A stretch of DNA of 32,000 nt from [Mycobacterium] zoologicum (GCF_020181635.2 NZ_JAYJJS010000018.1:74061-106060); one strand, 5' to 3'. Positions 4,146 through 32,000 are shown, numbered from the stretch's first letter. Notes: generated by a model not told the origin, from the letters alone. Translations and numbers: made by a program.

Positions 4146-4609
4146 CGGCGGAGCTCGATCGCGGTCTTGCCGATTCGAATCGGCGTTCCGACGGGAACTC
4201 GGACGGCAGTAGTCACCTTCACCCTGTCAAGGTAGGTGCCGTTGGTCGATCCGAGGTCTTCGACATACCATTCCGTTCCCCGTTGGGACAGTCGCGCGTG
4301 CCGGGTGGAGGCGTAGTCGTCGGTGAGCACCAGGGTGGAGTCGTCGGCGCGCCCGACCAGAACAGGCTGGTCGCTCAGCGCGATCCGGGCCCCGGTGAGC
4401 GGCCCCTCGGTGACCACCAGGTGGCGCGCGGTGCTGCGCTGCTCGCGCGACGGCAGCAGAACACCGCGGATCGACAGGCCGCGGCGAACCATCACCGCGC
4501 CGGTCGGGGCGTAGATGTCGGTGCGCAGGATGCGCAGCACCGACCAGATGAACAGCCACAGCAACGTCAAAAAACCGGCGCGCGTCAGCTGCAGCACGAG
4601 TCCCTGCAT
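4142..4609 (-). CDS. fhaB: FHA-domain membrane protein FhaB/FipA
   Basis: I place the start at MQGLVLQLTRAGFLTLLWLFIW, giving 155 aa, the same length as Rv0019c. The track ORF begins 17 codons further upstream. It has an N-terminal TM helix and a C-terminal FHA domain (GRADDSTLVLTDDYASTRHARL...STNGTYLD). Confidence 0.85.
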   Translation of the reverse strand: MQGLVLQLTRAGFLTLLWLFIWSVLRILRTDIYAPTGAVMVRRGLSIRGVLLPSREQRSTARHLVVTEGPLTGARIALSDQPVLVGRADDSTLVLTDDYASTRHARLSQRGTEWYVEDLGSTNGTYLDRVKVTTAVRVPVGTPIRIGKTAIELRR

Positions 4610-4772
4610 CCGGCGTCCTCTCCGTCTTCGCGCCGACCATGTGGTGCTCACGCGGAGCACTTCGGCAAAGTCACGATACTTGGACGCGGCTGACCGTAGG
4701 GAAAAGCGGGAGGGCCCCGCATGCTCTGGGCCTTCTTCCGGCTTATCCGGGCCGCGTGACGTGTGCCGGAAG

Positions 4773-6911: not shown

Positions 6912-7421
6912 TCACTTCGGCGGCGGGTCGAGCAGGGCGCGGGCGTCTTTGATCAGCAGCAGCAGGTGCAGCGGGTCGGTCGGGGAGGGCTCGAAATCGA
7001 AGTGCGCGTAGAACGCGCGCGCCTGCTCGTGCAGCGCGTGAACCAGCAGTGCCCGCACCCCGATGATCTCCGCGGCGGCCACCGCGCGGGTGATCGCGTC
7101 GCGCAGTAGTGCAGCGCCCAGCCCCTGGCCTTGTTCCTTGCGGTCGATCGCCAGCCGTGACAGCAGGATCACGGGAACCGGGTCGGGCATATTGCGCCGT
7201 ACCCGCCCTGGAGTTCCGGCGCGCTCCACCACCGCTGAGGCCAACGCGTAGAACCCGACGACGCGGCCGCCCCGGCACGTCACGAAGCACCGGGAGGCAC
7301 CCTCGACGTGGTTGGCCAGTGCGCGTCCCCGCAGGTACTCATCCAGGGTTGGTTCGCCGCTGTCGAAGTCGGCGACCACATCGTGTTCGCTGATCGGCCG
7401 GGGCGCGCTGTAGTTGCTCAC
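6912..7421 (-). CDS. GNAT acetyltransferase toxin of a DUF1778/GNAT (TacT/AtaT/KacT-like) type II TA system
   Basis: 169 aa. The acetyl-CoA pocket motif is RKEQGQGLGAALL within LSRLAIDRKEQGQGLG. Size fits the family. The gene has a 4-nt overlap with an upstream DUF1778-type antitoxin gene. Confidence 0.8.
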   Translation of the reverse strand: MSNYSAPRPISEHDVVADFDSGEPTLDEYLRGRALANHVEGASRCFVTCRGGRVVGFYALASAVVERAGTPGRVRRNMPDPVPVILLSRLAIDRKEQGQGLGAALLRDAITRAVAAAEIIGVRALLVHALHEQARAFYAHFDFEPSPTDPLHLLLLIKDARALLDPPPK

Positions 7422-7687
7422 TCGTCGAAGATCGAGGACTCCGCGAACAACTTCTCCAGCCGCGGCTTCTGCGACACCGGGCGGTCCAGCACCGCCACGA
7501 ACTCCGACCAGGCCGACGCATCAAGCATGAACAGCCGCCGATCGGCGAGCACCGCGCGGGCATGAGCCAGCGTCGCAGTCACCGCGAAGTTGGTCAGATC
7601 GGTCCCCTCCACTTCGGCGGCACGACGAATCAGCGCGTCCTGCTCAGCAGTCAGGCGCACCGCGAACCGCTCCGTCTTCGTAGCCAT
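7418..7687 (-). CDS. DUF1778 (TacA-like, RHH) antitoxin
   Basis: MATKTERFAVRLTAEQDALIRRAAEVEGTDLTNFAVTATLAHARAVLADRRLFMLDASAWSEFVAVL is the typical DUF1778 layout. The start is ambiguous: ATG at 7687, 7696 or 7738. I prefer 7687 or 7696. Confidence 0.78.
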   Translation of the reverse strand: MATKTERFAVRLTAEQDALIRRAAEVEGTDLTNFAVTATLAHARAVLADRRLFMLDASAWSEFVAVLDRPVSQKPRLEKLFAESSIFDE

Positions 7688-7693
7688 GCCGTC

Positions 7694-7720
7694 CATTGTG
7701 TGCCTATCAGGCACACAATG
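7694..7720. promoter_or_regulatory. Perfect 12-bp-arm palindrome, candidate TA autoregulatory operator
   Basis: cattgtgtgcct-atc-aggcacacaatg lies directly at or upstream of the antitoxin start codon. RHH antitoxins typically bind palindromes in their own promoter. Confidence 0.6.
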
Positions 7721-8193
7721 CAACAGGGTTTTGATCATGCCCCTGACCAGGCTCGATGCACTTCATACCTGTTAAAACACGCTCTGACTCACGGAAAGGG
7801 TTACCGGGGCCAGTCGGGTCGCGGGGCGTGGGCCGTCACGAACACCTCGGCATCCTGACCGGACAGGTGCAGTTGACGGTGGAGCTGGCGGTCGTAGTCG
7901 GGGTGATCTGGCCACGCTTGCCGGCGTGGAAGAGGTCGTCGGTCACCGTGACCCTGGGCGGCGGCATGCTGGCTGACCCCGCGGCGTGCGCCGCGAGCGG
8001 TTTGAGGCGCCAGCAAGGTCGATGGGCGGACTGGCGGTGGGCGCGGCCCGGTCAACACCTTTGGGGTGCGGTGCCGAGGCGCTCCTCGTCTGTTCGCCGC
8101 GCGTAGCTGTCACTGTTACAGGCGAGACTGGCACGAATGACGGCCACCGAACCGCACTGGCGGCACATCTGCGAAGTGTGCGGGGTCGAGGAG

Positions 8194-8936: not shown

Positions 8937-10301
8937 ATGCCCACACCCCGCACCGCGATCATCGGTGCCGGCATCAGCGGCCTGACCGCCGGCAAGATGC
9001 TCACCGACTACGCGATCGACTACACCTGCTTCGAATCGTCTGACCGGATCGGCGGCAACTGGGCCTTCGGCAACCCCAACGGGCACTCCAGCGCCTACCG
9101 CTCCCTGCACATCGACACCTCCAAGCACCAGCTGTCGTTCAAAGACTTCCCGATGCCTGCCCACTACCCCGATTTCTTGCACCACACGCTGGTCAAGGAG
9201 TACCTGGAGGCCTACGCGGCAGCGTTCGAGCTCAAACGCAACATCGAGTTCGAGATGACGGTCGCCCACGCGCAGCGGCTACCCGGCGGCGGATGGGAGC
9301 TGGAACTGGCCGGCGGTCGGCGGGAATGCTTCGACCTGCTGATCGTGGCCAACGGCCACCACTGGGACCCGCGTCTGCCGGAGTTCCCGGGTGAGTTCAC
9401 CGGCCAGACGCTGCACGCCCACCACTACATCGACCCGAAGACGCCGCTGGAGTTCAGCGGCAAGCGGATCCTGGTGGTCGGGCTGGGCAACAGTGCCGCC
9501 GACATCGCCGTGGAACTGTCGTCGAAGGCCCTGGACAACGAGCTGACGCTGTCGACGCGCTCGAGCGCCTGGATCGTGCCGAAGTACGTGGCCGGCAAGC
9601 CCGCCGACAAGTATTACCGGACCAGCCCCCACATTCCGCTGTCGTGGCAGCGCAAGGTGATTCAGCGAGTCCAGCCGTTCCTGTCGGGGCGGCCCGAGGA
9701 TCTCGGCCTGCCGACGCCCAACCACAAGCTCTTCGAGGCGCACCCCACCCAGTCGGTGGAGCTGCCGCTGCGGCTCGGGTCCGGCGATGTGATCCCCAAG
9801 CCCGACATCAGCCGATTCGACGGCGCCACCGTGCATTTCACCGACGGCACCAGCGGTGACTTCGACATCATCGTCTACGCCACCGGTTACAACATCACCT
9901 TCCCGTTCTTCGACCCGGAGTTCATCAGCGCACCGGACAACCGGATCGACTTGTACAAGCGGATGTTCTACCCCGGTATCGAGGACTTGGTGTTCGCCGG
10001 TTTCGCCCAGGCGACGCCGACGCTGTTCCCGTTCGTGGAGTCCCAGGCCCGCCTGATCGGTGCCTACGCGGCCGGCCGCTACCGGCTGCCGTCGACCGCC
10101 GAGATGCGCCGGGTGATCGCCGCCGACACCCACAAGTACACCGGGCACGTGATGAACAGCCCGCGTCACACCCAGCAGGTCGACTACTTCCTCTACGAAC
10201 ACGACATGCGTACCCGTGAGATCCCGCGCGGCGCCCAGCGGGCCGCCGAACGCGGTGCGCCCAGTTGGGCCGGCGTGCGTGCGATGGAGGTATCCGGATG
10301 A
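8937..10301 (+). CDS. Class B flavin-containing monooxygenase (FMO / Baeyer-Villiger-type)
   Basis: 454 aa. FAD Rossmann motif is GAGISG and the NADPH Rossmann motif is GLGNSAAD. The FMO fingerprint FxGxxxHxxxY appears as FTGQTLHAHHY. The C-terminal ATGY motif is present. A GGAGG sequence lies 6 nt upstream of the ATG. Confidence 0.85.
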   Translation: MPTPRTAIIGAGISGLTAGKMLTDYAIDYTCFESSDRIGGNWAFGNPNGHSSAYRSLHIDTSKHQLSFKDFPMPAHYPDFLHHTLVKEYLEAYAAAFELKRNIEFEMTVAHAQRLPGGGWELELAGGRRECFDLLIVANGHHWDPRLPEFPGEFTGQTLHAHHYIDPKTPLEFSGKRILVVGLGNSAADIAVELSSKALDNELTLSTRSSAWIVPKYVAGKPADKYYRTSPHIPLSWQRKVIQRVQPFLSGRPEDLGLPTPNHKLFEAHPTQSVELPLRLGSGDVIPKPDISRFDGATVHFTDGTSGDFDIIVYATGYNITFPFFDPEFISAPDNRIDLYKRMFYPGIEDLVFAGFAQATPTLFPFVESQARLIGAYAAGRYRLPSTAEMRRVIAADTHKYTGHVMNSPRHTQQVDYFLYEHDMRTREIPRGAQRAAERGAPSWAGVRAMEVSG

Positions 10302-18948: not shown

Positions 18949-19026
18949 GGAGTCCACAGCCCCCGGTCGGGTGAATTGTCGGCGTCGCGTGCCCTGCGTA
19001 GTGTCACCGGCCATGGAGCGGTCAGC

Positions 19027-20373
19027 GTGACGACTCGCGACGACGTGTTGGACGTGATTCACCGGATCGAGACGGCCGGGAACGCGGGTGAGGCGACGCG
19101 TGCGGCACAGGCCGCCTTGACTCTGCCGCTGCCGTCGGCGGGTTATGACCGGGTACTGGATCAGCTGCGCACGGCGTATCCGCGAATCGTCGGCGCGGCA
19201 GCTACCGAGCAGCAGGGCGCCGCAGCACAGGCCATGAAGGAAGCTGAAGCGGAACTGCGCCAACAGCTCTCGGCAACAGCGGAATTCGACCGGCACATCC
19301 TAGAAGCGTTGCGTCACGCCGGCCAGAACACAGTGGAGGGCCGTCGCCGCCTCGACAACCTGGAGGCCGAGATCGTCGGCGCGGCGCGGGCGTGGGATCT
19401 GAGCACCGCGGCCGGGTCCCGCGAGTTCCAGCGTTACCTGATCGGCAAACTGGGCGAGATCATCCGGGTGGTCGCCGCAGCCGACGACGACGACACCGCC
19501 AAGCAGGAGCTGACGACCGCGCTCACGGCGTTGTACACCGACAACACCGGCCGCGATGAGTCATCACCGGCCGCGCAGCCCCCCGCGGGTGTCACCGACC
19601 CGGTGTTGATGCCCGATGTCCCGGCAAAGGCAGGTCCCGACGAGGAGGATCCCTGGCTCGACCCCGACCTGGACGACGCTTACCTCGACGACGAACTGGA
19701 GCCCGAACCCGGTCCTGCGGCCGCAGCGCACTACCAGCCCGGGATGCCGTCGATGCCCCCGAACTTCGGCGGCGAATCGCCGGGCTTCGGCGGAATGCCG
19801 GCGGGGATGTCGCCCGGTTTGCCGCTGGCCGGACTGGGCTCGGACCCGTTCGACGACATCGGTGACCAGGAGTACCCGAGAGAGACCGAGGCCGAAGACG
19901 CTGGGCCGGAGGACAAGGCTGACACGGACACCGCCGCCGACGCTGATGACGCCGGCGGACCCGCACCGGAGCCTCCGGCCGACGACGGGCCGGTGACCGT
20001 GCGGCTGCCGGACGGGCAGACCACTAGCGTCGCCGATCCGCAGCTGGCCGCAGCCATGCAGGCCGCCGCGGACGGCACGCCGGTGGCGGAGGCGTTCCGT
20101 CGGCAGGGGATCGCCATCCCGCCGCCGGGCACACCCGTGACCGCCCCCGTGGACCAGGCGCAACTTCAGCCCGGTGATATCGGGGTGTTCACCGACCGCC
20201 ATGCGCTCGCCGTGGGCGATGGCCGGGCCCTGCTCGACGGGCAGCTCCACCTGGCCGGCAACCTGCGGGGGCCCGGATTCCTGGGCTGGCAGCATCCCCC
20301 GATCCGCGCCGGCGGGCCGGCACCGGTCCCCGAACCCGTCCCTACACACACCGCCGGCTACCGGTGGGCTTGA
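19027..20373 (+). CDS. Large hypothetical protein (Rv0026-like): helical N-domain, acidic/Pro-rich linker, degenerate NlpC/P60-like C-domain
   Basis: The reading frame is open from TTG at 18976. I prefer the GTG at 19027 (VTTRDDVLDVIHRIE), which has GGAG about 11 nt upstream and gives 448 aa. See findings for the C-terminal similarity to the neighbouring NlpC/P60 domain. Confidence 0.7.
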   Translation: MTTRDDVLDVIHRIETAGNAGEATRAAQAALTLPLPSAGYDRVLDQLRTAYPRIVGAAATEQQGAAAQAMKEAEAELRQQLSATAEFDRHILEALRHAGQNTVEGRRRLDNLEAEIVGAARAWDLSTAAGSREFQRYLIGKLGEIIRVVAAADDDDTAKQELTTALTALYTDNTGRDESSPAAQPPAGVTDPVLMPDVPAKAGPDEEDPWLDPDLDDAYLDDELEPEPGPAAAAHYQPGMPSMPPNFGGESPGFGGMPAGMSPGLPLAGLGSDPFDDIGDQEYPRETEAEDAGPEDKADTDTAADADDAGGPAPEPPADDGPVTVRLPDGQTTSVADPQLAAAMQAAADGTPVAEAFRRQGIAIPPPGTPVTAPVDQAQLQPGDIGVFTDRHALAVGDGRALLDGQLHLAGNLRGPGFLGWQHPPIRAGGPAPVPEPVPTHTAGYRWA

Positions 20374-20419
20374 AAATCGCCGTCTCAACCGTCATCGTCG
20401 ACTAGCCAGGGAGGTAAAC

Positions 20420-20734
20420 ATGCCACAGGAGATCCACGTCAACAACGCCGTGCTCACCAAGGCGGCCGGAAACCACCAAGAGACGTCCGAATACCTGGCT
20501 ACCGTGTCGGCCTCCCACGAGGGCATCCGGGCGATGCTGAGCTCGCTCGGGCCGATCTACGGTGACCTGCGTCAGGCCGCGGACTCGATGCTCGACGCCC
20601 GCAAGGGCTGCTACGACAGCCAGGCAGGCGAGCATTCGGACGTGGCCGGCAACCTGCACGGCGCAGTGTCAACGTGGAACAAGCACGAAGACGACGCGGC
20701 CAGGTCCTTCCGGAACCTCACCGATGGGCGCTGA
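20420..20734 (+). CDS. Small helical protein of the EspC-like / type VII secretion target family (Rv0027-like)
   Basis: 104 aa starting MPQEIHVNNAVLTKAAGNHQETSEYL... A GGAGG sequence lies upstream. The length and the helix-turn-helix-hairpin style pattern resemble EspC/DUF2580-type proteins. This family call is by eye only. Confidence 0.6.
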   Translation: MPQEIHVNNAVLTKAAGNHQETSEYLATVSASHEGIRAMLSSLGPIYGDLRQAADSMLDARKGCYDSQAGEHSDVAGNLHGAVSTWNKHEDDAARSFRNLTDGR

Positions 20735-21048
20735 TGACTGAGCCGAATCCGGCATATGACACCGCGCATCCCAGCGGCGACGTGCTGTTCCGGTCCTGCC
20801 GCGGCGGTTATCTGCACAGCGTGGCGCTGAGCGAGACAGCCATGGGGGCCGACGTCTCTCGGCTGGCCGAGGCGATCGTGCTGACGGCCGAGGTGTCGTT
20901 CCTCAAGGCGGCGTTGGAGATCCGGGCCGACATGGTCACCACCGGGCACGCGCCCTCAGCTGCGGTGCCCACCAACGACGATCTTCGGGTGGCCACCGAG
21001 CGTCTGGTGGAACACCGACTGCACGGCGACCGGCACACCGGGCGTTAA
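20734..21048 (+). CDS. YbaB/EbfC-fold (EspL-like) small protein (Rv0028-like)
   Basis: 104 aa starting MTEPNPAYD. The start shares one nucleotide with the upstream stop (TGATG). The core GDVLFRSCRGGYLHSVALSETAMGADVSRLAEAIVLTAEVSF fits the YbaB-like pattern. Confidence 0.6.
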   Translation: MTEPNPAYDTAHPSGDVLFRSCRGGYLHSVALSETAMGADVSRLAEAIVLTAEVSFLKAALEIRADMVTTGHAPSAAVPTNDDLRVATERLVEHRLHGDRHTGR

Positions 21049-21285
21049 GTCACCCACTGCCCGGCGGCATCGGCCCTCGGTGCAATGCCGTCGGGTGCGT
21101 CGATCACCGTGTCACCGAACAGGTTTCGGGCGCGCTCCAGCAGCGCGAGCACTTCGCTCAGCGTTGCTTCACATCCCGTACCCGGGGACCCGACGTCGGC
21201 CATGAAATGCACGCTACCGACCTGCTGTGGGGCTGACAATTCACGACACACAGGGGTTGGGGATAGCCAACGGTACGCTTGCGCG

Positions 21286-22887
21286 GTGGCACTATTCGGT
21301 CGACGGTCGGCGCGCCAGCGCCTCCGGAGCGCGGCCCGGGAGTCGCTGACGATCCCGGCGTTCAGCGCTCCGGTCGACTGCAGTGCCTGGGTGCTCGGCG
21401 GACTGTGGCCCGCAGAGTTGGCGACGGTGACGCCGGCGACGGCTCAGCTGGCCGAGTACCTGGACGCCGATCTGCGGCGCATTGCAGATTCGGCGAACGA
21501 AAAGCTGCATGCGATCGGTCGATCGGGGCTGGCGGGTCAGGCGCGGCAGACCGCCGAGTCCAGAGTGATCAACGTGGCCAGGGCGTTCGCCGTACTTCGG
21601 GTGGAGTCGACGGTGCGCTATCTGCACAACGAGGCCCTGGAGTTTCGTCCGCAGTACGCCAGCCTGAATTCGGCCCCGCCCCCGGCGGCGGTGACCGAGC
21701 AGATCCCGGCCCCGGTAGAGCCGGAACCCGTCGCGGTGGAACTGCCTCGCCCGGTCGATCCGCCCCCGGAGGCCCCGAGACCCGCGGCCCGTCATCGGAT
21801 GCCGGAGCCGGTCGTGGTCGAGGCGCCGCCCGCACCGCTTCCCGAGCCCGAGTCCGAGCCCGCGCCGGTCCCGGAGGTGGCGGAGCCGGCTCCCGAGGTG
21901 CCGGTGGCGGAGGAGCCGGTTGTTGTGCCGCCGGTTGTTGTGGAGCCCGTGTTGGTGGAACCGGTGGTGGCGGAGCCAGTGGTGGAGCCACCGGTTGAGG
22001 TTGTGCTTCCGGTCGAGGTGGTACCAGTCGTCGAGGTGCCCGTCGTCGAGGTGCCGGTTGTGGTCCCGCCACCGGAGCCGGTGGTGGCCCTGCCGCCCCC
22101 GCCCGAGCCGGTTGTGGTCAGGCCGGAGTCTTCCGAGCCGACGGTTCTCATTCCGGTGGAGCCCGAACCGCCCGTCGTCGTCGCGGCCGAGCCCGAACCG
22201 CCCGTCGTACCCGCCACGCCACCCCCGGCCCCGCCGGCCGTGACCGAATCCGATGACCAGCGCCTGCAGCGCCTGCTGGCGTTCGTCGCGCGGCAGGAGC
22301 CCGGCCTGAGCTGGGCCGTCGGCAGCTTCGCCGACGGCAAGACCGTGCTGGTCACCGACTTGGCCCACGGCTGGATCCCGTCCGGGATCGAGCTGCCGGC
22401 CGAAGTGCACCTGCTCGGTCCCGGGCAACGAACCGGCACCGCGGCCGCCATGCTGGGCGACGCAACGGCGTCGGCCATTTACCACCCCGGCGATCGGCTG
22501 GGCTGGGCCAGCGACTTCGGCGTGACCGAAGCCTCGGTACAGCCTCGCGAACTGGACGCCGTCGACGACCTCGGCTGGCAGCTCAGTGAGGCCACCCACT
22601 GGCGTGACGGGCTGCCGCGGATGGCCAACACTCTGGTGAAGGCTGGTGCGACCGGCACCGGTGTGGCCGACGCTGAAATCGACTTACTGCGAGTGCATCT
22701 GGACACCGTGCGCTATCAGCTGCTCGCGCAGTATCCCGGCGCCGACGCCGCTCTGGTGCTCAACTGCATGCTGCTGGCCGCGACCGAGGGCATCGCCGCT
22801 GGCGATGGGGTCTCGGCCAACTACCACTACAGCTGGTTCCGTGCGCTCAGCGCTCCGCAGCCCAGCCAGTGGGACCCGCAGAAGTAA
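21286..22887 (+). CDS. Large Pro/Val/Glu-rich protein with conserved C-terminal domain (Rv0029-like)
   Basis: The frame is open from 21085. I favour the GTG at 21286 (VALFGRRSARQRL). Layout is a helical N-domain, then about 190 aa of PEPV/PVVE repeats, then a C-domain (LQRLLAFVARQEPGLSWAVG...VLVTDLAHGWIP). That C-domain is paralogous to the partial ORF at 31293-32000. The start codon is uncertain. Confidence 0.7.
   Translation: MALFGRRSARQRLRSAARESLTIPAFSAPVDCSAWVLGGLWPAELATVTPATAQLAEYLDADLRRIADSANEKLHAIGRSGLAGQARQTAESRVINVARAFAVLRVESTVRYLHNEALEFRPQYASLNSAPPPAAVTEQIPAPVEPEPVAVELPRPVDPPPEAPRPAARHRMPEPVVVEAPPAPLPEPESEPAPVPEVAEPAPEVPVAEEPVVVPPVVVEPVLVEPVVAEPVVEPPVEVVLPVEVVPVVEVPVVEVPVVVPPPEPVVALPPPPEPVVVRPESSEPTVLIPVEPEPPVVVAAEPEPPVVPATPPPAPPAVTESDDQRLQRLLAFVARQEPGLSWAVGSFADGKTVLVTDLAHGWIPSGIELPAEVHLLGPGQRTGTAAAMLGDATASAIYHPGDRLGWASDFGVTEASVQPRELDAVDDLGWQLSEATHWRDGLPRMANTLVKAGATGTGVADAEIDLLRVHLDTVRYQLLAQYPGADAALVLNCMLLAATEGIAAGDGVSANYHYSWFRALSAPQPSQWDPQK
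21670..22250. repeat. Low-complexity Pro/Glu/Val coding repeats (PEPV, PVVE, EPEPPVV units)
   Basis: Visible in both DNA and protein. For example, gagcccgaaccgcccgtcgt occurs twice about 30 bp apart near 22159 and 22189. VEVPVVEVPVVV and AEPEPPVV are both repeated. Confidence 0.8.
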
Positions 22888-22936
22888 GGCCGGCATTGAA
22901 TTGACGCTACTCACACGGGCTCGACATACTAAGTGA

Positions 22937-23245
22937 ATGTCGGGGCCGGACAGTCGCACGGAACTCAGCGACAGGGACCTCGTCGAGTCCGTGCTGCGGG
23001 ACCTGCGTGAGGCCGCGGAGAAGTGGGAAGCGCTCGTCGCGGAAGCCGAAAACACCACGTACAGCGTCGATCTGGGTGACGTGCGGGCGGTGGCCAATGC
23101 GGACGGGCGGCTGCTGGAGCTGACCCTGCACCCCTGTGTGGTCACCGATTACACCCACGGTGAGTTGGCGGATCGCCTCAACATGGTGTTCACCGCCCTG
23201 CGCGAAGAGGCGGTGGCCGACTTCGAAGCCCGGTACGGCAGCTAG
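22937..23245 (+). CDS. YbaB/EbfC-fold (EspL-like) small protein (Rv0030-like)
   Basis: 102 aa. YSVDLGDVRAVANADGRLLELTLHPCVVTDYTHGELADRLNMVFTALREEA fits the YbaB-like core. Confidence 0.6.
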   Translation: MSGPDSRTELSDRDLVESVLRDLREAAEKWEALVAEAENTTYSVDLGDVRAVANADGRLLELTLHPCVVTDYTHGELADRLNMVFTALREEAVADFEARYGS

Positions 23246-25035: not shown

Positions 25036-26013
25036 TCAGGCGTCGGCCGGGAACCAGTAGTCCAGTGTCTGCTCGACCCCGCCCCAGTCGACGCCCAGCC
25101 AGTCGCCGAAGAAGCCTTCGATGTTGCCGAAGGCGCTGTAGACGAACGCCACGGCCGAGTAGAACAGGCCGTCCCACCAGGCGCTGTCGACCAGGCCGTG
25201 GCTCCAGGCGTTGACCCAGGCGCCGAACTGGTCGAAGTCCCCGGAGATGTCGATGTTGGTGATCATGCCGTCGGTGCTGGACGTGTGGTTGCCGACCTCG
25301 GCGGGGGACAGTCCCAGATACATCATGTGCTCGTAGAACAAGCCGAGCCCATCGGTGGAGGTGGGGTCGGTGACCGGGTCGCCGGGAATCGTGTAGTCGG
25401 TTACCGCGAACGCGTTCGTCGGGGTCTGGACGCCGTTCAGCAGAGCGGTGTCGAAGAAGTCGGGGGACGAGGCCCCGCCGCCGTCCAGCGACGCGGTATC
25501 CGCACCAACGGGATTGCCGATGAACACGAAGTGCAGAAGGTTCGGGTCGACGCCGTCGTGGGCCAGCTGCGCCATTGCGATCGAGCCGGCCGTCGCACCC
25601 TGCGACCAGCCGAACACCCACAGCGGGTGGTCGGCGTCGTAGGCGTCCGGGTTGGCGGCGAGTTGGGCGTGTACCTCGCGCACGATCTCGGCCGCCCCGA
25701 CGAAACTGCTGTGCCCCTGCTGGACCAGCGCCGGGGTGGACAGCAGCAGCAACGACCCGTCGCACCCGGCGGAACCGACCACGCATGCGGTCGGGTCGTC
25801 GCCGACGTCGAAACCCAAGGGGCGCAGGTACAGATCAGCCGCGGTCTCGGCGAACGTCGCCGACGGCGTCGACAGGATGGTCGGTCCGACGAAGATCGCG
25901 GTGTCGGCAAGCAGGTCGATATCGACGTACGCGGCGTGGACGGTGGGTGCGGCCAGGACGCTGCCGGCGACCGCACCGGCGATGGCCATCGGCGCGATCG
26001 CTCTGGTCAGCAT
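25036..26013 (-). CDS. Secreted stand-alone PE-PPE-domain serine hydrolase, copy 1
   Basis: I place the start at MLTRAIAPMAIAGAVAGSVLAAPTVHA, which is signal-peptide-like. The nucleophile elbow is FGWSQGA (GxSxG). The C-terminal part contains the PGDPV motif. It is near-identical in layout to the divergent neighbour. Confidence 0.8.
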   Translation of the reverse strand: MLTRAIAPMAIAGAVAGSVLAAPTVHAAYVDIDLLADTAIFVGPTILSTPSATFAETAADLYLRPLGFDVGDDPTACVVGSAGCDGSLLLLSTPALVQQGHSSFVGAAEIVREVHAQLAANPDAYDADHPLWVFGWSQGATAGSIAMAQLAHDGVDPNLLHFVFIGNPVGADTASLDGGGASSPDFFDTALLNGVQTPTNAFAVTDYTIPGDPVTDPTSTDGLGLFYEHMMYLGLSPAEVGNHTSSTDGMITNIDISGDFDQFGAWVNAWSHGLVDSAWWDGLFYSAVAFVYSAFGNIEGFFGDWLGVDWGGVEQTLDYWFPADA

Positions 26014-26181
26014 CCTGGGCCCCTCCACCCGCAAGCTAAAAATCACACGAATAAATCACAAGAGTGAGCTGAGGGCGATCATGGCAGGGACCTCCGTCGA
26101 AGTCAACGGATCATTGACTCTCGCAGGCAGAGAATGCCACTATTGCGTCTTCGGCCGTCTCTCGTCCTAGGAGCCTCCGCA

Positions 26182-27162
26182 ATGATCGCAACCCGAGCGT
26201 TGGCGCCGGTCGCCGCCGCGTTTACCGTCGCCGCCGGCGTCCTCGGAACGCCCGTCCTGCCGACCACCTGGACGCAGGTGGCGCTGCTGGCGGACACCGC
26301 GATCTTCGTCGGCGGCACCATGCTGTCCACGCCGTCGGCGACATTCGCGCAGACCGCGGCCGATCTGTACCTGAACCCGTTGGGTTTCGACGCCGGCGAC
26401 GACCCGACGGTGTGTGTGATCGGTTCCGGCGTCTGCGATTCCCCACTGCAGGTGTTGACCACCCCGGAACTGATCCTGCAGGGGCACAGCAGTTTTGTCG
26501 GCGCGGCGGAGATCGTGCGGACGGTGCAGGCCGAGCTCGCCGGGAACCCCGGTGTCTACGACGCCGAGCATCCGCTGTGGGTGTTCGGCTACTCGCAGGG
26601 TGCGACGGCCGCCTCGATCGCGATGGCGCAGCTGGCGCACGACGGTGTCGACCCGCGGGCTTTGCACTTCGTGTTCATCGGCGACCCGTCCGATGCGGAC
26701 GGCGTCAGCGCCACCAACCAGAGCGACACTCCATGGGACAGGCTTTTCGACATGCCGATACTGAACGGCAACCTGACCCCGAACGACGCGTTCCCGACGA
26801 CCATCTACACGTTCCCGGGCGACCCCGTCGCCGACGCCGCCTCCAATTCGATGCTCGGCCTGTTCTACGAGCACATGATGTACATGGGGCTCACGCCGGC
26901 GCAGGTTGCCGACCAGACGAAAACTGTCGACGGCATGATCACCAACGTCGATATCTCCGGGGACATCGATCAGTTCAGTGCCTGGATCAACTCGTTCGGA
27001 CACGGGTTGCTCGACAGCGCCTCGGTGGAAGCGCTCTTCAATTCGCTTGTGGCCCTTGTGTACAGCGCCTTCGGCAACATCGAGGGCTTCTTCACCGACT
27101 GGATGGGCATCGACTGGGGCGGGGTCGAGCAGACGCTGGACTACTGGTTCCCGGAGGCCTGA
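26182..27162 (+). CDS. Secreted stand-alone PE-PPE-domain serine hydrolase, copy 2
   Basis: I place the start at MIATRALAPVAAAFTVAAGVLG. The nucleophile elbow is FGYSQGA. The protein is collinear with copy 1 along its whole length. The C-terminus FGNIEGFFTDWMGIDWGGVEQTLDYWFPEA compares with FGNIEGFFGDWLGVDWGGVEQTLDYWFPADA in copy 1. Confidence 0.8.
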   Translation: MIATRALAPVAAAFTVAAGVLGTPVLPTTWTQVALLADTAIFVGGTMLSTPSATFAQTAADLYLNPLGFDAGDDPTVCVIGSGVCDSPLQVLTTPELILQGHSSFVGAAEIVRTVQAELAGNPGVYDAEHPLWVFGYSQGATAASIAMAQLAHDGVDPRALHFVFIGDPSDADGVSATNQSDTPWDRLFDMPILNGNLTPNDAFPTTIYTFPGDPVADAASNSMLGLFYEHMMYMGLTPAQVADQTKTVDGMITNVDISGDIDQFSAWINSFGHGLLDSASVEALFNSLVALVYSAFGNIEGFFTDWMGIDWGGVEQTLDYWFPEA

Positions 27163-27190: not shown

Positions 27191-27209
27191 ATCCTGGAAT
27201 CTCCCTACC

Positions 27210-27452
27210 ATGGCCTCCATGGAGACGATCAGCAGCACAGACGCCAAAAACCAGCTCAATCGGCTCTTGAACGACGTCAAATCCGGTGCTTCGTTCACCA
27301 TCACCAGCCACGGCAAGCCGGTTGCGCAACTGGTGCCAGTCGCGGCCGTCCCACGCAGATTTGGTCAGCTGCCAAGCGTCGCCGTTCCCGATGACTTCGA
27401 CGCCGCACTGCCGGCAGCAGAACTCGAGGCATGGGACGGGTCCCAGGGGTGA
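27210..27452 (+). CDS. vapB: Phd/YefM-type antitoxin
   Basis: 80 aa. METISSTDAKNQLNRLLNDVKSGASFTITSHGKPVAQLVP is the typical Phd/YefM fold signature. Confidence 0.85.
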   Translation: MASMETISSTDAKNQLNRLLNDVKSGASFTITSHGKPVAQLVPVAAVPRRFGQLPSVAVPDDFDAALPAAELEAWDGSQG

Positions 27453-27838
27453 ATGTCCTACTCGACACCCACGTACTGCTGCGGCTGGTCAGTAACCCCT
27501 CGAATCTGGCTCCCGAAACGCTCGCGATCTTGTCCGACCCCGGGACCGACCTGTGGGTGACGGCCGCGTCGGCCTGGGAGATCGCAACCAAGACCCGGTT
27601 GGGGCGCCTCGACGGTGCAGCGTTGTTGTCGACATGGACCGACGTCATGACCGACATGAGCTGTTCGGAACTGGCGATCGACTCCGCCGACGCGATCCTT
27701 GCCGGCCGACTTCCCTGGGAACACCGCGACCCGTTCGACCGGATCATCGTCGCCCAAGCGTTACGACGCAATCTCACCATCGCAACCCGTGATGCCAAGA
27801 TCATCGACGCGGCGATCACCCCGACCCTGACAGGGTGA
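27449..27838 (+). CDS. vapC: PIN-domain toxin VapC
   Basis: The GTG at 27449 overlaps the antitoxin stop (GTGA). An alternative in-frame ATG lies at 27431. The acidic residues lie in LLDTHVLL, SAWEIATK, DRIIVAQA and IATRDAKI. Confidence 0.85.
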   Translation: MNVLLDTHVLLRLVSNPSNLAPETLAILSDPGTDLWVTAASAWEIATKTRLGRLDGAALLSTWTDVMTDMSCSELAIDSADAILAGRLPWEHRDPFDRIIVAQALRRNLTIATRDAKIIDAAITPTLTG

Positions 27839-27897
27839 ATTGACGGTAAAAAGTTCGCCTGCCACGATCGCCGAAAGACGATCGAGGGGAGGTCGGG

Positions 27898-28212
27898 ATG
27901 TTCGTCGATCCGGCGATGCTGACGGCGGGTGCAGCCCATGCCCACACGGCGTCCGAGCACGCCCAAGCAGGCGCGAAGGAGCTGGATCAGCGCACGGTAA
28001 CGGCGGGAATCTTCGGGGGCTTCGGCGCGGCCGATGTCTTCCACCAGGCGATTTCGACCAGTCACGCCGAGCACGTCACCACGCTCAATGATCACCGCCG
28101 GACGCTGGCTGATGTCGGGGACAAGGCCCACCTCGCCCGGCGGGCGTTCCTCGGCATGGACCATGAAGCCGCGGCCCAACTGCGTGGGGTGCGGTGCAAC
28201 TCCAACATCTGA
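27898..28212 (+). CDS. Small all-helical EspC-like / type VII secretion target-like protein, candidate partner of the downstream toxin
   Basis: 104 aa starting MFVDPAMLTAGAAHAHTASEHAQAGAKEL... A GAGGGGAGG sequence lies upstream. Same size class and layout as the 20420 gene. Its 3' end overlaps the downstream GTG start by 19 nt. Confidence 0.6.
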   Translation: MFVDPAMLTAGAAHAHTASEHAQAGAKELDQRTVTAGIFGGFGAADVFHQAISTSHAEHVTTLNDHRRTLADVGDKAHLARRAFLGMDHEAAAQLRGVRCNSNI

Positions 28213-29690
28213 ATCTGCCGTGGCTCATCGAAGCCGCCGGCGGTGATCCGTGGCAGGTCAACAGCACCCTGCAAAGCGGCAATCCGGGCGTCGTCGACGA
28301 GCTGGCGCAGGCCTTCCACAACGCCGCTTTGTGTACGTCCGAGTCCAGTGCGGCGTTCACCGAGGCGGGGAAACGCTTCCGGGCCGCGTGGAACCGGGAG
28401 AACGGTGAACACCCGATCAACGACTCCCTGGAAGTTCAGCGCGCCACCCAAACCCTGCACCTGCAGCAGAACCAGCTCCTCGCGATTGGCACCGATCTGG
28501 AGAACATCGCCGCCGCGCTGGCTGAGGCTCAGCGCGACGCGGCGGACAAGATCGCCGCACTGGAGACGCAGCTGCAAAACATCGACGACCACATCGGCGT
28601 CTACCTCGACGCCGACGCCGACGTCTCGGACCTGGTGCAGATGGCTGCCGACGACACCGCCGGGATTCTGCATCAGATCGAAAAGATCCGCGACGACTAC
28701 GCCGCGACACTTCAAGCCGCAACGGCCAAGCTGTTGTCCGACGGCTACGACCCGGTGGCCCTGCACGGCTACGACGGCGACGGGCAGCCGACGCTGGACC
28801 AGCAGACCGACCGCGCCGCCGATGCCTACGGCACCACCCAGCGCGACCACGACCAGCAGCTGGTGGACGAGCCCGGCGAGATGACGCCGGAGAAGGCCGA
28901 AGCCGCTGCGCGCCTGCGCGATTACGCCACCGTCAGCGACCCCGCGGCCGATCCGGATGCCCGACGTCTCGCCGGTGAGCGCCTCGATGACTTCCGGATG
29001 GCTAATTTTGTTGGGCAGCTGCCGCCGGACATGGTGTTGGGCGGCGATGCCCGAAGCAACGCGGCCAATCGGTTGGACATGCAGCGCCGCCTGGAATCTG
29101 GAACCGTGCATCCCGATATCGCGCCGATGACTCCGGATCAGGCCACCCGAGCCCTCGACGAGGCTGAAACCGTCGCCCGCGCTTGGACACTCACCAGCTT
29201 CGCCGACCGACTTCGCAACAGCGGAGTGTCCCCGGGAGGCGTCACGCGGGCTGTCACCGCAATCAGGAACGGGATCCCGGCCAGGGAGTTCTTCGACCAG
29301 CTCTCGAACGCCTCCGGCAGCGTAGGCAAGGGACTGGCGAAATACGGAGAAGTATTATCTCCGGCGGATCACCGAATCAACCCGAGCGCGTACACCAAGG
29401 CCGACGCCGCGGCGTTGGCGAAATTCGGCAGGAATCTCGGCGGTGCGGCGACTGTACTGGACGGTGCACTAACCTTGATCGACGTGGTGAACGGCGATAT
29501 CTCGCCGAAGCAGGGTGTGGCGGAATTTGGTGGCCGTTGGGCAGGGGGTGCAGTAGGTGGATGGGGCGCGCTTGTTGCAATGTCCTTCTTGGTCGCACCG
29601 GAGATAGCCGTGCCCGTCGCAGTGGCCGGTGGCGTAATCGGCGGCTCCAAATTGGGTCAAACAGCCGTCGATAAACTGCTGGGATACTAA
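28194..29690 (+). CDS. Candidate polymorphic toxin: helical N-terminal (T7SS-targeting-like) region plus C-terminal double glycine-zipper hydrophobic hairpin
   Basis: 498 aa with a GTG start. The N-terminus reads NLPWLIEAAGGDPWQVNSTLQSGNPGVVDELAQAFHNA and is followed by coiled-coil-like helices. The last 60 aa or so read GGRWAGGAVGGWGALVAMSFLVAPEIAVPVAVAGGVIGGSKLGQ, with repeated GxxxG spacing. The function is inferred, not demonstrated. Confidence 0.55.
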   Translation: MQLQHLNLPWLIEAAGGDPWQVNSTLQSGNPGVVDELAQAFHNAALCTSESSAAFTEAGKRFRAAWNRENGEHPINDSLEVQRATQTLHLQQNQLLAIGTDLENIAAALAEAQRDAADKIAALETQLQNIDDHIGVYLDADADVSDLVQMAADDTAGILHQIEKIRDDYAATLQAATAKLLSDGYDPVALHGYDGDGQPTLDQQTDRAADAYGTTQRDHDQQLVDEPGEMTPEKAEAAARLRDYATVSDPAADPDARRLAGERLDDFRMANFVGQLPPDMVLGGDARSNAANRLDMQRRLESGTVHPDIAPMTPDQATRALDEAETVARAWTLTSFADRLRNSGVSPGGVTRAVTAIRNGIPAREFFDQLSNASGSVGKGLAKYGEVLSPADHRINPSAYTKADAAALAKFGRNLGGAATVLDGALTLIDVVNGDISPKQGVAEFGGRWAGGAVGGWGALVAMSFLVAPEIAVPVAVAGGVIGGSKLGQTAVDKLLGY

Positions 29691-29691
29691 C

Positions 29692-30333
29692 TTGAATTAT
29701 GCACTGATCATCGCAGGCGGTCTCTGCCTTTTCGCCGGTGGGCTGCTTGAGCATCTAAAGGTGCCGTTGACGACAAAGCGTCGCATGTACTGGTATCTGG
29801 CGGCACTGTCGGGGATACTTTGGTTCCTAGCGGGCTACCCCAATCTTGAGAATATGCTCGGTTTCCTCGCCATGGCATTGGTAATCCAGCTGGGATGGGC
29901 ATATGCCCACACGCCATATATTCGCATAAATGGCAAAATTTACGCGTTTGAATCAAAGTATGTAAACATCGAATCGGAAAATGGCCCGGACGAACTTCGG
30001 CGGCGCAATGAATTTACTACACCGACCAAGATGTGGTGGGTAGTTGCATTTTGGCCGATAGTGATTTGCGCCGCGATATGCAGTTCATTTCTGCCGGGCC
30101 GTGAAGGATTTAGTATTCACAACGACGGTGCGTGGATTCTCGGTTTGCTCGGATACTGCCTGTTCTTCGGAATCGTTGTGGGCCGAGGCGAGGCGAAGCT
30201 CGACCGCTCGATCGCGCAAGGACAATGGCCCCAGTTCATCATCGCGTCGATATGCTCAGCGGGTCTGTTCGCCGTGTTCTATCTGACGGCCTACCACGCG
30301 ACCATGCTGGTGAGGGAACGACGGGAAGACTGA
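29692..30333 (+). CDS. Polytopic (about 6 TM) membrane protein, candidate immunity protein
   Basis: 213 aa. The TTG start lies 1 nt after the toxin stop. An alternative in-frame ATG lies at codon 32. Hydrophobic segments are YALIIAGGLCLFAGGLL, YWYLAALSGILWFLAGY, MLGFLAMALVIQLGWAYA, MWWVVAFWPIVICAAICSSFL, AWILGLLGYCLFFGIVVG and FIIASICSAGLFAVFYLTAY. It uses many A/T-ending codons, unlike its neighbours. Confidence 0.6.
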   Translation: MNYALIIAGGLCLFAGGLLEHLKVPLTTKRRMYWYLAALSGILWFLAGYPNLENMLGFLAMALVIQLGWAYAHTPYIRINGKIYAFESKYVNIESENGPDELRRRNEFTTPTKMWWVVAFWPIVICAAICSSFLPGREGFSIHNDGAWILGLLGYCLFFGIVVGRGEAKLDRSIAQGQWPQFIIASICSAGLFAVFYLTAYHATMLVRERRED

Positions 30334-30357
30334 CTGGGCGCTGCCTTCCCAGCCGCC

Positions 30358-31296
30358 TTACTTCGACGAATCCTTCTTGTCCACAATGCGTTTCAGCGGC
30401 GTGATGCCGGGGTGGCTGGCGTCCTTGGTGGCGGACTTCGTCACCGGCACGTTCGGGGCGGCGGTGGTCCGACCCTTGACCGGTTGACCGTTGGGCATGC
30501 CGGGGGTCGTGATCCGCTTCGACTCGGTCGGTCCGTCTTTGCCGCCCTTGCCGCCGCCGCCCGCTCCGCCGGGCATCATCGGCATCATTCCGCCACCGCC
30601 GCCACCCGGTCCGGCCGCCCCACCTGGGGCGCCGGCCATTCCACCTTTGGCCATGGCGCTGGCCGGTGTTGTCGGTGTCGAGGTGCCCGGGACCGGTGGC
30701 GGGCCGAGATTGCTGGCCGGCGTGGTACCCATGCCGAGCCCGCCGCCGCTTCCCCCGGAGCCCGAGATTCCGGTCGATCCAAGATCCGGGTGGACGTTCG
30801 AGGCAAGTGTGGTGCCGCCGAGGCCGCCTTTGGCCAGCGACATCAGCGGCGACAGCGCACCCTGGCCGGCCTGCATCAAGCCCTGCGGCACTTTGCCCAC
30901 CGAGCCGAGCACGCCACTGAGAGCGCCGGTGACGCCTTGCAGCGCGCCGGTGACGCCCTGCATGGCGCCGCCCATCGCGTCCTGAGGTGCCTTTCCGGCC
31001 AGGGCGGCGTCGCCCTTGCCGGCGAGCTTCTCGAACTGCGACGCCGCGTCGGCCTCATGCTCACTGAACTTTCGCACCGCGTCTAACGCATGCCCGGTGC
31101 GGTCGGCGTGGTCCCCGGCGATGTCGGTGTTGGTCCCGGGGAGGTCGGCGTTGGTCGCGGCGCCGAATGCCGCAGCGTTGGCGTCGGTGGACGAGACGCC
31201 GCCAGTGTGGACGGGAGCAGGCGCAAGCGGAGTCGGAGGGGCGCTCATGCCGGTCTGCATGTATTTCTCAAGCTCGGCGATGACGTCGTTGGTCAT
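30358..31296 (-). CDS. Gly/Ala/Pro-rich low-complexity protein, possible ESX-associated substrate
   Basis: 312 aa. The helical N-part reads MTNDVIAELEKYMQTG...ALDAVRKFSEHEADAASQFEKLAG. QGVTGAL repeats follow. Gly runs and MMPMMPGGAGGGG recall the C-termini of PPE/Esp proteins. The start overlaps the upstream gene's stop (ATGA). Confidence 0.6.
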   Translation of the reverse strand: MTNDVIAELEKYMQTGMSAPPTPLAPAPVHTGGVSSTDANAAAFGAATNADLPGTNTDIAGDHADRTGHALDAVRKFSEHEADAASQFEKLAGKGDAALAGKAPQDAMGGAMQGVTGALQGVTGALSGVLGSVGKVPQGLMQAGQGALSPLMSLAKGGLGGTTLASNVHPDLGSTGISGSGGSGGGLGMGTTPASNLGPPPVPGTSTPTTPASAMAKGGMAGAPGGAAGPGGGGGGMMPMMPGGAGGGGKGGKDGPTESKRITTPGMPNGQPVKGRTTAAPNVPVTKSATKDASHPGITPLKRIVDKKDSSK

Positions 31297-32000
31297 GGCT
31301 TCAAACCTCCGTACCGCACCGTCACGGCCTGGTGCCAGGCCAGGTGGTAGCGGGCGAGTTCTTCACTTCCGTCGATCAGGGCGTCGACGGCCGCCAGCAG
31401 CATCCAGTCCGCGACGTCTTTGGGGGCGTGCGCCGGATATGCCGAGAGTACTCGTGTCCGCGTCGCATCGACCACCTGCTGGAACAGTTCGATTTCATTG
31501 TCGGCGGCACCGTATCGGCGGGACACGGCCTGCGCGACGGTCTGCACGATGCGCGGCAGACGCGAATTGGCTCCGACGGTGTCGATCAGCGTGGGGCCCA
31601 ATTCGTCGACGCGCTGGCCGTGGCGGGCGCGTTCCCCGGTACCGGGAATCGGGTCCTGCGGATCGGCGCCAGCGATGTAGGTGTTCGGCTGGTGGGAGGC
31701 CACGGCCACCACCGCACCCAGAAGGTCGACCGCGCTGGTGTCCCGGCGGCGCTGCGCGGGGCTGAGAAGGGTCACACCTGGTGGGAGTTTGACGGTGGGG
31801 GGAATCCAGCCGCCGGCCAGATCGGTGACCAACACGGTGGTGGACTCGTCGTCGCGCAATCCGGCGGCCCATGCCAGTCCCGGTTCCTGACGGGCGACGG
31901 CGTCAACTTTGCGCTGCAGATCCTGTTGCTCGGCAAGACGTTTGCCGGCAGTACCAGCGCCGGCCCCAGCCGTTCCGCCGGCCGCCGCGCTGCCGGCCAT
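31293..32000 (-). CDS. Rv0029-like C-terminal domain protein (paralog of 21286..22887); 5' end probably beyond the window
   Basis: VARQEPGLAWAAGLRDDESTTVLVTDLAGGWIPPTVKLPPGVTLLSPAQR aligns with the C-domain of the 21286 gene. The frame stays open to the window edge, so the apparent ATG at 32000 may be internal. Confidence 0.7.
   Translation of the reverse strand: MAGSAAAGGTAGAGAGTAGKRLAEQQDLQRKVDAVARQEPGLAWAAGLRDDESTTVLVTDLAGGWIPPTVKLPPGVTLLSPAQRRRDTSAVDLLGAVVAVASHQPNTYIAGADPQDPIPGTGERARHGQRVDELGPTLIDTVGANSRLPRIVQTVAQAVSRRYGAADNEIELFQQVVDATRTRVLSAYPAHAPKDVADWMLLAAVDALIDGSEELARYHLAWHQAVTVRYGGLKP

Follow-up and report, generated by a model that had tools for sequence, protein, structure and literature searches.

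The question raised by a 32,000-nt window of the [Mycobacterium] zoologicum genome (NZ_JAYJJS010000018.1:74061-106060) is whether three tightly coupled genes on its positive strand, at positions 27898 to 30333, encode a membrane-targeting toxin together with a secretion partner and an immunity protein. A preliminary description of the sequence had read the trio in this manner, as an effector locus of a T7SS (type VII secretion system). The first gene (27898-28212, +) begins with ATG, 7 nt downstream of a GGAGG ribosome-binding site, and encodes a small helical DUF2563 protein of 104 amino acids (aa) that is proposed to serve as a T7SS targeting factor like PE, Lap1 or Tap. The second (28194-29690, +), which overlaps the first by 19 nt and begins with GTG, encodes a 498-aa putative polymorphic toxin made up of a carrier N-domain and a toxin module. 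It ends in TAA, and after a 1-nt gap the third gene (29692-30333, +; TTG start) encodes a 213-aa membrane protein with approximately six transmembrane (TM) segments, the proposed cognate immunity protein; TM segments throughout were assigned from hydropathy only. The three open reading frames (ORFs) as first described, their coordinates, the overlap and the gap were all reproduced, and the peptides quoted at that time (LPWLIEAAGGDPWQV, AGGAVGGWGALVA and VAGGVIGGSKLG) are present in the sequence. The locus is probably an operon for a polymorphic toxin of the type VII (ESX) kind and its immunity protein; domain modularity, cassette replacement, linkage and co-divergence of the toxin C-terminus with the membrane protein, conserved motifs and a PPE/WXG-like fold are all evident in it.

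Cassette replacement and the membrane protein family

The operon is syntenic with a locus of M. vasticus (L003), where protein identity is 97% for the Phd antitoxin and 91% for the PIN-domain protein encoded upstream, and 79% for the 312-aa protein and 86% for the DUF5631/DUF5632 protein encoded downstream. DNA identity between the two loci is 85-96% from 27200 to 29000, approximately 40% from 29000 to 30350, and approximately 91% from 30350 onward. The replaced cassette (29005-30357, +) comprises toxin codons ~271-498, the entire 213-aa gene and a short intergenic tail. Its left breakpoint is marked by the junction motif ARRLAGERLDDFRMA (aa 256-270; 28959-29003, +), a run of invariant or near-invariant columns that also forms the start of the toxin module; identity collapses at ~29005, directly 3′ of the codons for ARRLAGERLDDFRMA, and the motif is kept in relatives of the toxin that are fused to WXG100 domains. 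On the right the breakpoint coincides with position 30358, where the convergent 312-aa gene has its stop codon. The replaced segment is compositionally foreign, with an in-frame GC3 of 0.84 in toxin codons 1-267, 0.69 in codons 268-498 and 0.62 in the 213-aa gene, the overall GC content of the latter being 0.53 versus 0.67-0.70 in the flanks. In M. vasticus the cassette encodes another glycine-zipper C-terminus, along with a membrane protein of 242 aa whose identity to that of the window is only approximately 24%. The preliminary description had named a conserved C-terminus lacking such cassette polymorphism as grounds for giving up its reading; instead, the last ~228 codons of the toxin gene have been exchanged jointly with the downstream gene while the flanks are nearly identical, and the toxin-immunity hypothesis therefore survives this attempt at refutation. 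The near-isogenic loci of the window genome and M. vasticus, differing only in the toxin-immunity cassette, constitute a natural experiment.

The pairing of toxin C-terminus and downstream gene was followed in a survey that used one genome per species and heuristic ORF calls, covered the 80 best-scoring of 366 loci, and included 88 genes encoding the carrier domain of the toxin (Hydro_N_hd); E-values of local searches relate to small databases. A hidden Markov model (HMM) of the family of the 213-aa protein matches the gene immediately following 55 glycine-zipper toxins, and has no match in loci with TNT or hydrolase payloads. Among 28 pairs of toxin and 6-TM protein, identity of the downstream protein follows identity of the toxin C-terminus when the N-domain is controlled for (partial rank r 0.40, 0 of 2000 permutations), the reverse partial correlation being 0.13. 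Arrays of 3-7 membrane-family paralogues are found beside glycine-zipper toxins in loci L007, L010 (9466-11949), L024 (1640-4838, −), L049, L054 and L058 (1087-4474); their resemblance to the tsaI arrays of Staphylococcus aureus suggests, by analogy, orphan-immunity islands. The downstream membrane partner first proposed from a single locus is thus borne out at the sequence level as a family that tracks the toxin C-terminus in its divergence and forms arrays, as would befit a candidate immunity protein.

The window member of this family has six hydrophobic segments in Kyte-Doolittle windows (residues 1-19, 32-50, 55-73, 116-134, 146-164 and 182-200), of which the second and third are weaker, confirming by hydropathy the six TM segments originally assigned. 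Family members occur in a full form of ~200-260 aa with six TM segments and in a ~110-aa form with three, which corresponds to the N-terminal half only (hhalign Prob 99.8%). An internal duplication within the 6-TM protein is not supported, its N- and C-terminal halves aligning at an hhalign Prob of 16%. A search of 5.8 billion proteins yielded only eight word-sharing homologues of the 213-aa protein. The exact sequence of the protein was seen in Logan assemblies only and not among NCBI or UniRef proteins, unlike that of the neighboring toxin, and the gene (TTG start, GC 0.53) is therefore probably unannotated in the public genome, like EatI in M. abscessus. Two further loci contain toxin genes that look shortened or frameshifted (L015, 8001-9251, 416 aa; L060, 8001-9257, 419 aa), and the downstream 6-TM gene of the former is intact (9556-10281); the toxin may have decayed and the immunity gene may have been kept.

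The same observations bear on the target of the toxin. An ESX-secreted effector acting against the membranes of a eukaryotic host or predator, such as an amoeba or macrophage, with the 6-TM protein protecting the producer during export, would be in keeping with the membrane-active mycobacterial T7SS proteins EsxA, and CpnT/TNT with its pore-forming EsxE-EsxF helpers, which act in host cells (PMC8593097 and PMC12635105), and with the source organism being a Mycolicibacter of unknown niche. However, rapid cassette turnover, cognate membrane immunity and immunity arrays are hallmarks of interbacterial, kin-discriminating toxins, for example TspA (PMC7456083), and the family has a wide distribution among saprophytic Mycolicibacterium species of the environment, so that a host-directed role is quite unlikely.

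A modular carrier domain and its proposed helical partner

Residues 1-180 of the 498-aa protein (28194-28733, +) match Hydro_N_hd (PF22905; Pfam E 4e-65), a helical carrier domain with the shape of an elongated three-helix bundle; residues 181-498 have no Pfam or NCBIfam match. Homologues of ~500 aa number 423 across Mycobacteriaceae. The protein has no N-terminal hydrophobic segment, in agreement with the absence of a Sec signal noted previously, and its sole hydrophobic stretch spans aa ~446-488. An AlphaFold2 (AF2) model of aa 1-276 has a pLDDT of 90.5 and contains three long helices (residues 31-65, 79-139 and 145-182). The nearest sensible folds in the Protein Data Bank (PDB) are EsxA and, from PE-PPE complexes, PPE15 and PPE41 (Foldseek prob 1.0, TM-target 0.61-0.66), with Foldseek E-values of 0.14-1.5 that taken alone do not reach significance. 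Helices 2 and 3 are separated by an invariant Trp-containing turn, W66-NRENG71-EHPINDS (28389-28427, +), corresponding to the loop of residues 66-78 in the model, in which W66, G71, P74 and I75 are invariant in the alignment; this turn is placed where T7SS substrates have their WxG/LxG turn. No Pfam match to LXG (PF04740), DUF3130 or DUF3958 was obtained at E ≤ 0.1, and an FxxxD-type motif in the small partner is the sole analogy to LXG systems. A tblastn search of a phage collection with the N-domain gave no match, so that nothing connects it with those M. abscessus prophage toxin cassettes that the collection contains.

The database entry that matches the window protein at 100% carries the name "putative alpha/beta hydrolase" in NCBI and UniRef, and the Pfam name of the N-domain, "Hydrolase N-terminal helical domain", points the same way. 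Only aa 1-180 match, however, and these form the helical carrier; Abhydrolase_8 is confined to paralogues of ~584-656 aa. As the 498-aa protein contains no hydrolase domain, enzymatic activity of the annotated kind is refuted by domain analysis and can for practical purposes be dismissed. Judged by domain content, the name is carried over from the longer Abhydrolase_8 paralogues, and a misleading annotation is thereby corrected.

The 104-aa protein belongs to Pfam DUF2563 (PF10817; residues 1-102, E 2e-27, 96 bits against a cut-off of 21.2). It scores below the curated cut-offs for T7SS_ESX_EspC (E 0.0065, 17.3 bits, cut-off 23.5) and WXG100 (E 0.08, 13.7 bits, cut-off 27.3), so that its earlier designation as EspC-like holds as a relationship in style and not as family membership. 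Near its C-terminus is an FxxxD/E motif, F84-L-G-M-D88 (28147-28161, +), a candidate export arm; in the aligned DUF2563 proteins F84 is kept in 66 of 67 and D/E88 in all 67. The FxxxD motif of Lap1 is needed for export of its LXG toxin, and YxxxD/E is found on T7SSa substrates (PMC9600955). By single-query tblastn, 57 of the 88 Hydro_N_hd genes have a DUF2563 gene as their immediate upstream neighbor, and HMM searches add several. The small helical partner proposed at the outset is therefore conserved immediately upstream in most loci, with a motif that would fit a role in export. Literature searches on DUF2563 and on Rv2078/Rv2079 found nothing functional.

Hydro_N_hd is joined to several kinds of C-terminus, among them TNT (PF14021; E 1e-23 and 6e-20), Abhydrolase_8, the glycine-zipper module and at least four types without a Pfam match, and many genomes contain several tandem copies. 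The type of downstream gene changes with the payload: TNT payloads are followed by soluble proteins of ~140-163 aa, one with a weak Imm63 match, hydrolase payloads by proteins of ~175-215 aa with one hydrophobic segment, and glycine-zipper C-termini by membrane proteins. The N-terminus is thus a modular carrier, as expected from the preliminary comparison with the targeting domains of polymorphic toxins. The module is mobile in the other direction as well. When 1.84 billion representative proteins were scanned with HMMER for relatives of aa 336-498, only 18 came up; several of these have the module in full, with "ADPxARRLAxERLDD" at one end and the glycine-zipper at the other, behind other N-domains. 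In P0133 the domain in front of it is WXG100 of Pfam (48 bits, E 1e-12), and in P0134, P0138 and P0141 it follows N-domains with WxG motifs; the clusters of P0133 and P0134 are named "WXG100 family type VII secretion target" in NCBI or UniRef. A locus of Mycolicibacterium frederiksbergense (L094, 3677-6221) contains the corresponding three genes, encoding a 104-aa partner that is not DUF2563 and carries YVGTD (YxxxD), a 502-aa toxin whose N-domain is of the WxG type ("TWEGEGG"), and a 235-aa protein matching the 6-TM family HMM at 2e-76. This locus is a clean example of the proposed two-part T7SS signal on a swapped carrier.

The interchange of payloads also bears on the idea of a self-acting, holin-like pore in the envelope of the producer that would help to export other T7SS substrates, as has been proposed for EsxE-EsxF with CpnT, with the 6-TM protein as its regulator. 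In M. tuberculosis, toxins are secreted with the aid of small Esx proteins that form pores, according to work cited within PMC13444075, and other putative T7SS substrates adjoin the locus. Nevertheless, a shared device should be conserved and not polymorphic, the co-divergence of the C-terminus with the downstream gene favors a specific inhibitor-target pair, and in paralogues the same position is held by TNT and hydrolase payloads; such an export device is therefore very unlikely.

The C-terminal hairpin and its proposed action

The single hydrophobic region of the 498-aa protein is a helical hairpin (aa 443-488; 29520-29657, +) that is the proposed membrane-inserting element. Its two helices contain the extended zipper motifs AEFGGRWAGGAVG (aa 443-455) and AVAGGVIGGSKLG (aa 476-488); P469 at the hairpin turn is invariant, and the glycine columns of the zippers are kept across the family. 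Of the last 60 residues 23% are glycine, as against 7.5% in the rest of the protein. The two GxxxG-rich hydrophobic helices reported previously are thus present, with a spacing that is modestly above that expected from composition (135 of 5000 shuffles equal the observed value). The C-terminal hydrophobic helix also conforms to the extended pattern, (G/A/S)xxxGxxxG or GxxxGxxx(G/S/T), by which TelE/EsxX/Tse4-type toxins are recognized.

In profile searches of the PDB the meaningful matches of the C-terminus were limited to pore-forming bacteriocin domains, namely colicin Ib (E 0.01), colicin A (E 0.011), pyocin S5 (E 0.02-0.04) and colicin B (E 2.1), with alignments in register over the helices before the hydrophobic hairpin and through it. 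Matches of the same profile to designed helical-repeat proteins (E ~1e-6) were rejected as spurious, arising from the summed weak repeats of one short motif. Against an alignment of eight colicin pore domains taken from annotated plasmids, C-terminal profiles gave hhalign Prob values of 38-54% (P 1.3e-4 to 3.3e-4), with P of 0.015-0.08 for the reversed template and above 0.3 for 30 column shuffles; a query profile of 175 sequences raised this to a Prob of 72% (P 3.3e-5; reversed control 0.056). A remote similarity of the C-terminus to the pore-forming domains of colicins and pyocins is, on these profile comparisons, suggestive and not conclusive. Whether or not there is a kinship with colicins, T7SS toxins that depolarize membranes, such as TelE, EsxX and TspA, have a glycine-zipper hairpin of this sort at the C-terminus.

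A mechanism can be proposed from these features. The DUF2563 protein would pair with the elongated helical N-domain, as PE proteins do with PPE proteins or Lap and Tap proteins with LXG and Eat toxins, and the pair would present a two-part secretion signal composed of the FxxxD/E arm of the partner and the Trp-containing turn of the toxin. This signal would be recognized by an ESX translocase, likely that of ESX-4 by analogy with EatA and CpnT. Following export, the module of aa ~256-498 would insert its glycine-zipper hairpin from outside into a rival mycobacterium's cytoplasmic membrane, where the hairpin would oligomerize and dissipate the membrane potential in the manner of colicin-type and TspA/EsxX/TelE-type toxins. 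In the producer, the translationally coupled 213-aa protein would block the hairpin within the membrane. Complex formation, export and its route, membrane activity, toxicity and protection by the trio are predictions made from the sequence. It is further suggested, with more doubt than confidence, that the toxin module may be an actinobacterial domain distantly related to the colicin/pyocin channel domain, delivered by ESX across a mycomembrane and neutralized by a previously undescribed 3-TM/6-TM immunity superfamily. If this were true, the family would be the first membrane-depolarizing interbacterial toxin family of mycobacteria, and the window-type and M. vasticus-type cassettes would define natural incompatibility groups.

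Several observations weigh against this interpretation. The colicin similarity lies below conventional significance, single C-terminal sequences have no match to the Pfam Colicin family (PF01024), a Foldseek search with the C-terminal model found no fold match (E ≥ 2), and the pLDDT of the AF2 model falls below 50 in the hairpin. On the immunity side, the 213-aa protein and its relatives have no match in Pfam or NCBIfam, including the TsaI-type DUF443, and homology of the family to the immunity proteins of colicins E1, Ia, Ib and K is not supported (hhalign P 0.2-0.25, no better than reversed controls). No ESX core genes were found in the 32-kb window, so that the secretion system is an assumption, and the route by which a protein toxin would cross the mycomembrane of its target is a puzzle. 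Finally, the hairpin superfamily is conserved in ~500-aa orthologues of many genera, as would be expected of a housekeeping membrane anchor.

This last point leads to a resident, tail-anchored protein, in which the hairpin would anchor an ESX-associated PPE-like protein and the 6-TM protein would be a structural or assembly partner, with no toxin or immunity function. Conservation of the ~500-aa architecture with its Gly-rich hairpin across many Mycobacteriaceae genera is in line with such a protein, as are the hairpin being its only hydrophobic element and the position of the locus amid Esp-like and DUF5631/5632 genes of unknown function. A housekeeping anchor, however, is not expected to be swapped along with its neighbor between 90%-identical flanks, to have a foreign GC content, to have its partner gene multiplied into arrays of 3-7 paralogues or to be shuffled with its partner onto unrelated WXG100 N-domains, and a bona fide toxin domain, TNT, occurs on the same N-domain. 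A resident anchor is accordingly judged unlikely, and a polymorphic toxin with its cognate immunity protein is the preferred reading of the locus.

Neighboring genes and comparison with known systems

Directly upstream of the operon, at 27210-27838 (+), overlapping genes encode a Phd/YefM antitoxin (80 aa) and a PIN-domain toxin (135 aa) in a VapBC-like pair that is 91-97% conserved in M. vasticus. These are preceded by two divergent genes for paralogues of ~340 aa that have hydrophobic N-termini and contain PF08237, the PE-PPE C-terminal hydrolase domain (25036-26046, − and 26134-27162, +); the M. vasticus homologue of the PF08237 gene is in the opposite orientation, which places a synteny break at ~27200. 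Convergent on the operon are the genes for the 312-aa Gly/Ala/Pro-rich protein (30358-31296, −), which has no Pfam match, and for a second DUF5631/DUF5632 protein (31293-32000, −). Genes of the DUF5631/5632 type lie within 8 kb of Hydro_N_hd genes in approximately 19 of 80 loci, and in six slow-grower loci (L011, L012, L014, L033, L041 and L079) such a gene replaces DUF2563 directly upstream of the toxin; these proteins may have an accessory role.

Approximately 5 kb upstream of the operon, a cluster of five T7SS-flavored genes (18976-23245, +) encodes DUF4226 (18976-20373, +), an EspC-family protein (PF10824, E 1e-15; 20174-20734, +), DUF2694 (20674-21048, +), a 600-aa DUF5631/DUF5632 protein (21085-22887, +) and DUF2710 (22937-23245, +), an arrangement that resembles the Rv0025-Rv0029 region of M. 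tuberculosis. Farther away, a TacA-like antitoxin (PF08681) followed by a GNAT acetyltransferase (6912-7738, −) forms a TacAT-type toxin-antitoxin arrangement, and genes for a PP2C phosphatase, an FHA protein and an FhaA_N+FHA protein (2757-6227, −) have the order of pstP-fhaB-fhaA, which places the window within the conserved origin-proximal cell-division and signaling region of mycobacterial chromosomes. A promoter and terminator scan of the sequence gave nothing beyond shuffled expectation, and NCBIfam added nothing useful for the five proteins examined.

The preliminary description had proposed a new effector class for ESX systems, which is an overstatement because ESX-4 toxin loci with Tap helpers and immunity proteins were published in June 2026 (PMC13444075) and because the Firmicute analogues TspA, TelE and EsxX have also been characterized. 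Interbacterial ESX toxins were thus shown in mycobacteria only in 2026, with one characterized payload, an arabinanase, and about half of the candidates without a predicted function. To these the present locus adds a widespread family (>400 homologues) with a predicted mechanism, membrane depolarization by a glycine-zipper and possibly colicin-like hairpin. If the toxin is active, it could reveal vulnerabilities of the mycobacterial envelope, and its passage across the mycomembrane to the inner membrane of the target becomes a question in its own right.

Among pore-forming bacteriocins, colicins and pyocin S5 have a hydrophobic hairpin ~10-50 residues from the C-terminus, after amphipathic helices, and a membrane immunity protein, as proposed here. 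Helices ~6-10 are in register in the profile alignment, at a Prob of up to 72% that lies below significance and is not confirmed by fold searches, and the short, 3-TM form of the membrane family (~110 aa) is near the size of Cei, Iia and Iib. Colicins differ in using receptor and translocation domains where the present toxin has a T7SS carrier. Among T7SS substrates, PE/PPE proteins are the structures on which the N-domain model superposes best and likewise include a ~100-aa partner with a [Y/F]xxxD/E motif, whereas neither a PE nor a PPE match is found in Pfam for the proteins of this locus. CpnT shares its TNT domain with Hydro_N_hd paralogues, and differs in its N-terminal domain and its EsxE-EsxF helpers.

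The T7SSb toxin TspA of S. aureus, like the window protein, has ~470-500 aa, a helical N-domain and a polymorphic C-terminus with one or two terminal hydrophobic helices (PMC7456083). Its C-terminus, which depolarizes membranes, was modeled on colicin Ia (PMC7456083), and a weak colicin Ia-like similarity is common to both proteins, making the early comparison with TspA an apt one. TspA is neutralized by an adjoining polytopic immunity protein, of which there are 10 tsaI genes (PMC7456083) compared with up to seven paralogues per locus here. Unlike TspA/TsaI, the present pair is assigned to T7SSa of diderm mycobacteria, its carrier is Hydro_N_hd and not LXG-like, its immunity family is not DUF443 and its membrane activity is predicted. 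TelE and EsxX are membrane-depolarizing LXG toxins of T7SS with a C-terminal glycine-zipper (PMC12744356). Compared by description with EsxX/ExiCD and TelE/TipE, the window locus has no LXG domain and no adjoining soluble cytoplasmic pair of the ExiAB type, and its two zippers flank an invariant Pro turn.

The closest counterpart by organization is the mycobacterial EatA, a protein exported via ESX-4 that combines a helical N-bundle with a GH183 payload, its locus also encoding the TapA1/TapA2 helpers and the inhibitor EatI (Benedict et al., Nat Commun, June 2026, PMC13444075). Payloads in the accompanying survey include alpha/beta-hydrolase, HNH, NlpC/P60 and TNT, 47% are without predicted function, and immunity proteins have TM helices where the envelope is the target (PMC13444075); its main text does not mention glycine-zipper, pore or depolarizing payloads, or DUF2563. 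Eat/Tap loci and the present operon share the order of helper, toxin with an elongated helical N-bundle and variable payload, and downstream immunity gene, predicted in the case of the window and often unannotated, as well as their occurrence in Mycobacteriaceae, and the alpha/beta-hydrolase and TNT payloads of that survey are those found on Hydro_N_hd paralogues. Unlike EatA, the window toxin has a glycine-zipper membrane payload in place of a GH183 arabinanase, one DUF2563 helper in place of two Tap proteins, and a polytopic membrane protein in place of the lipoprotein inhibitor EatI. The locus would thus fit the Eat/Tap kind on all features compared, a likeness by description and not by EatA or Tap sequence, and what is new in it is the boundary of the mobile module at ARRLAGERLDD, the putative 3-TM/6-TM immunity superfamily with its arrays, the natural cassette swap and the possible relationship to colicins.

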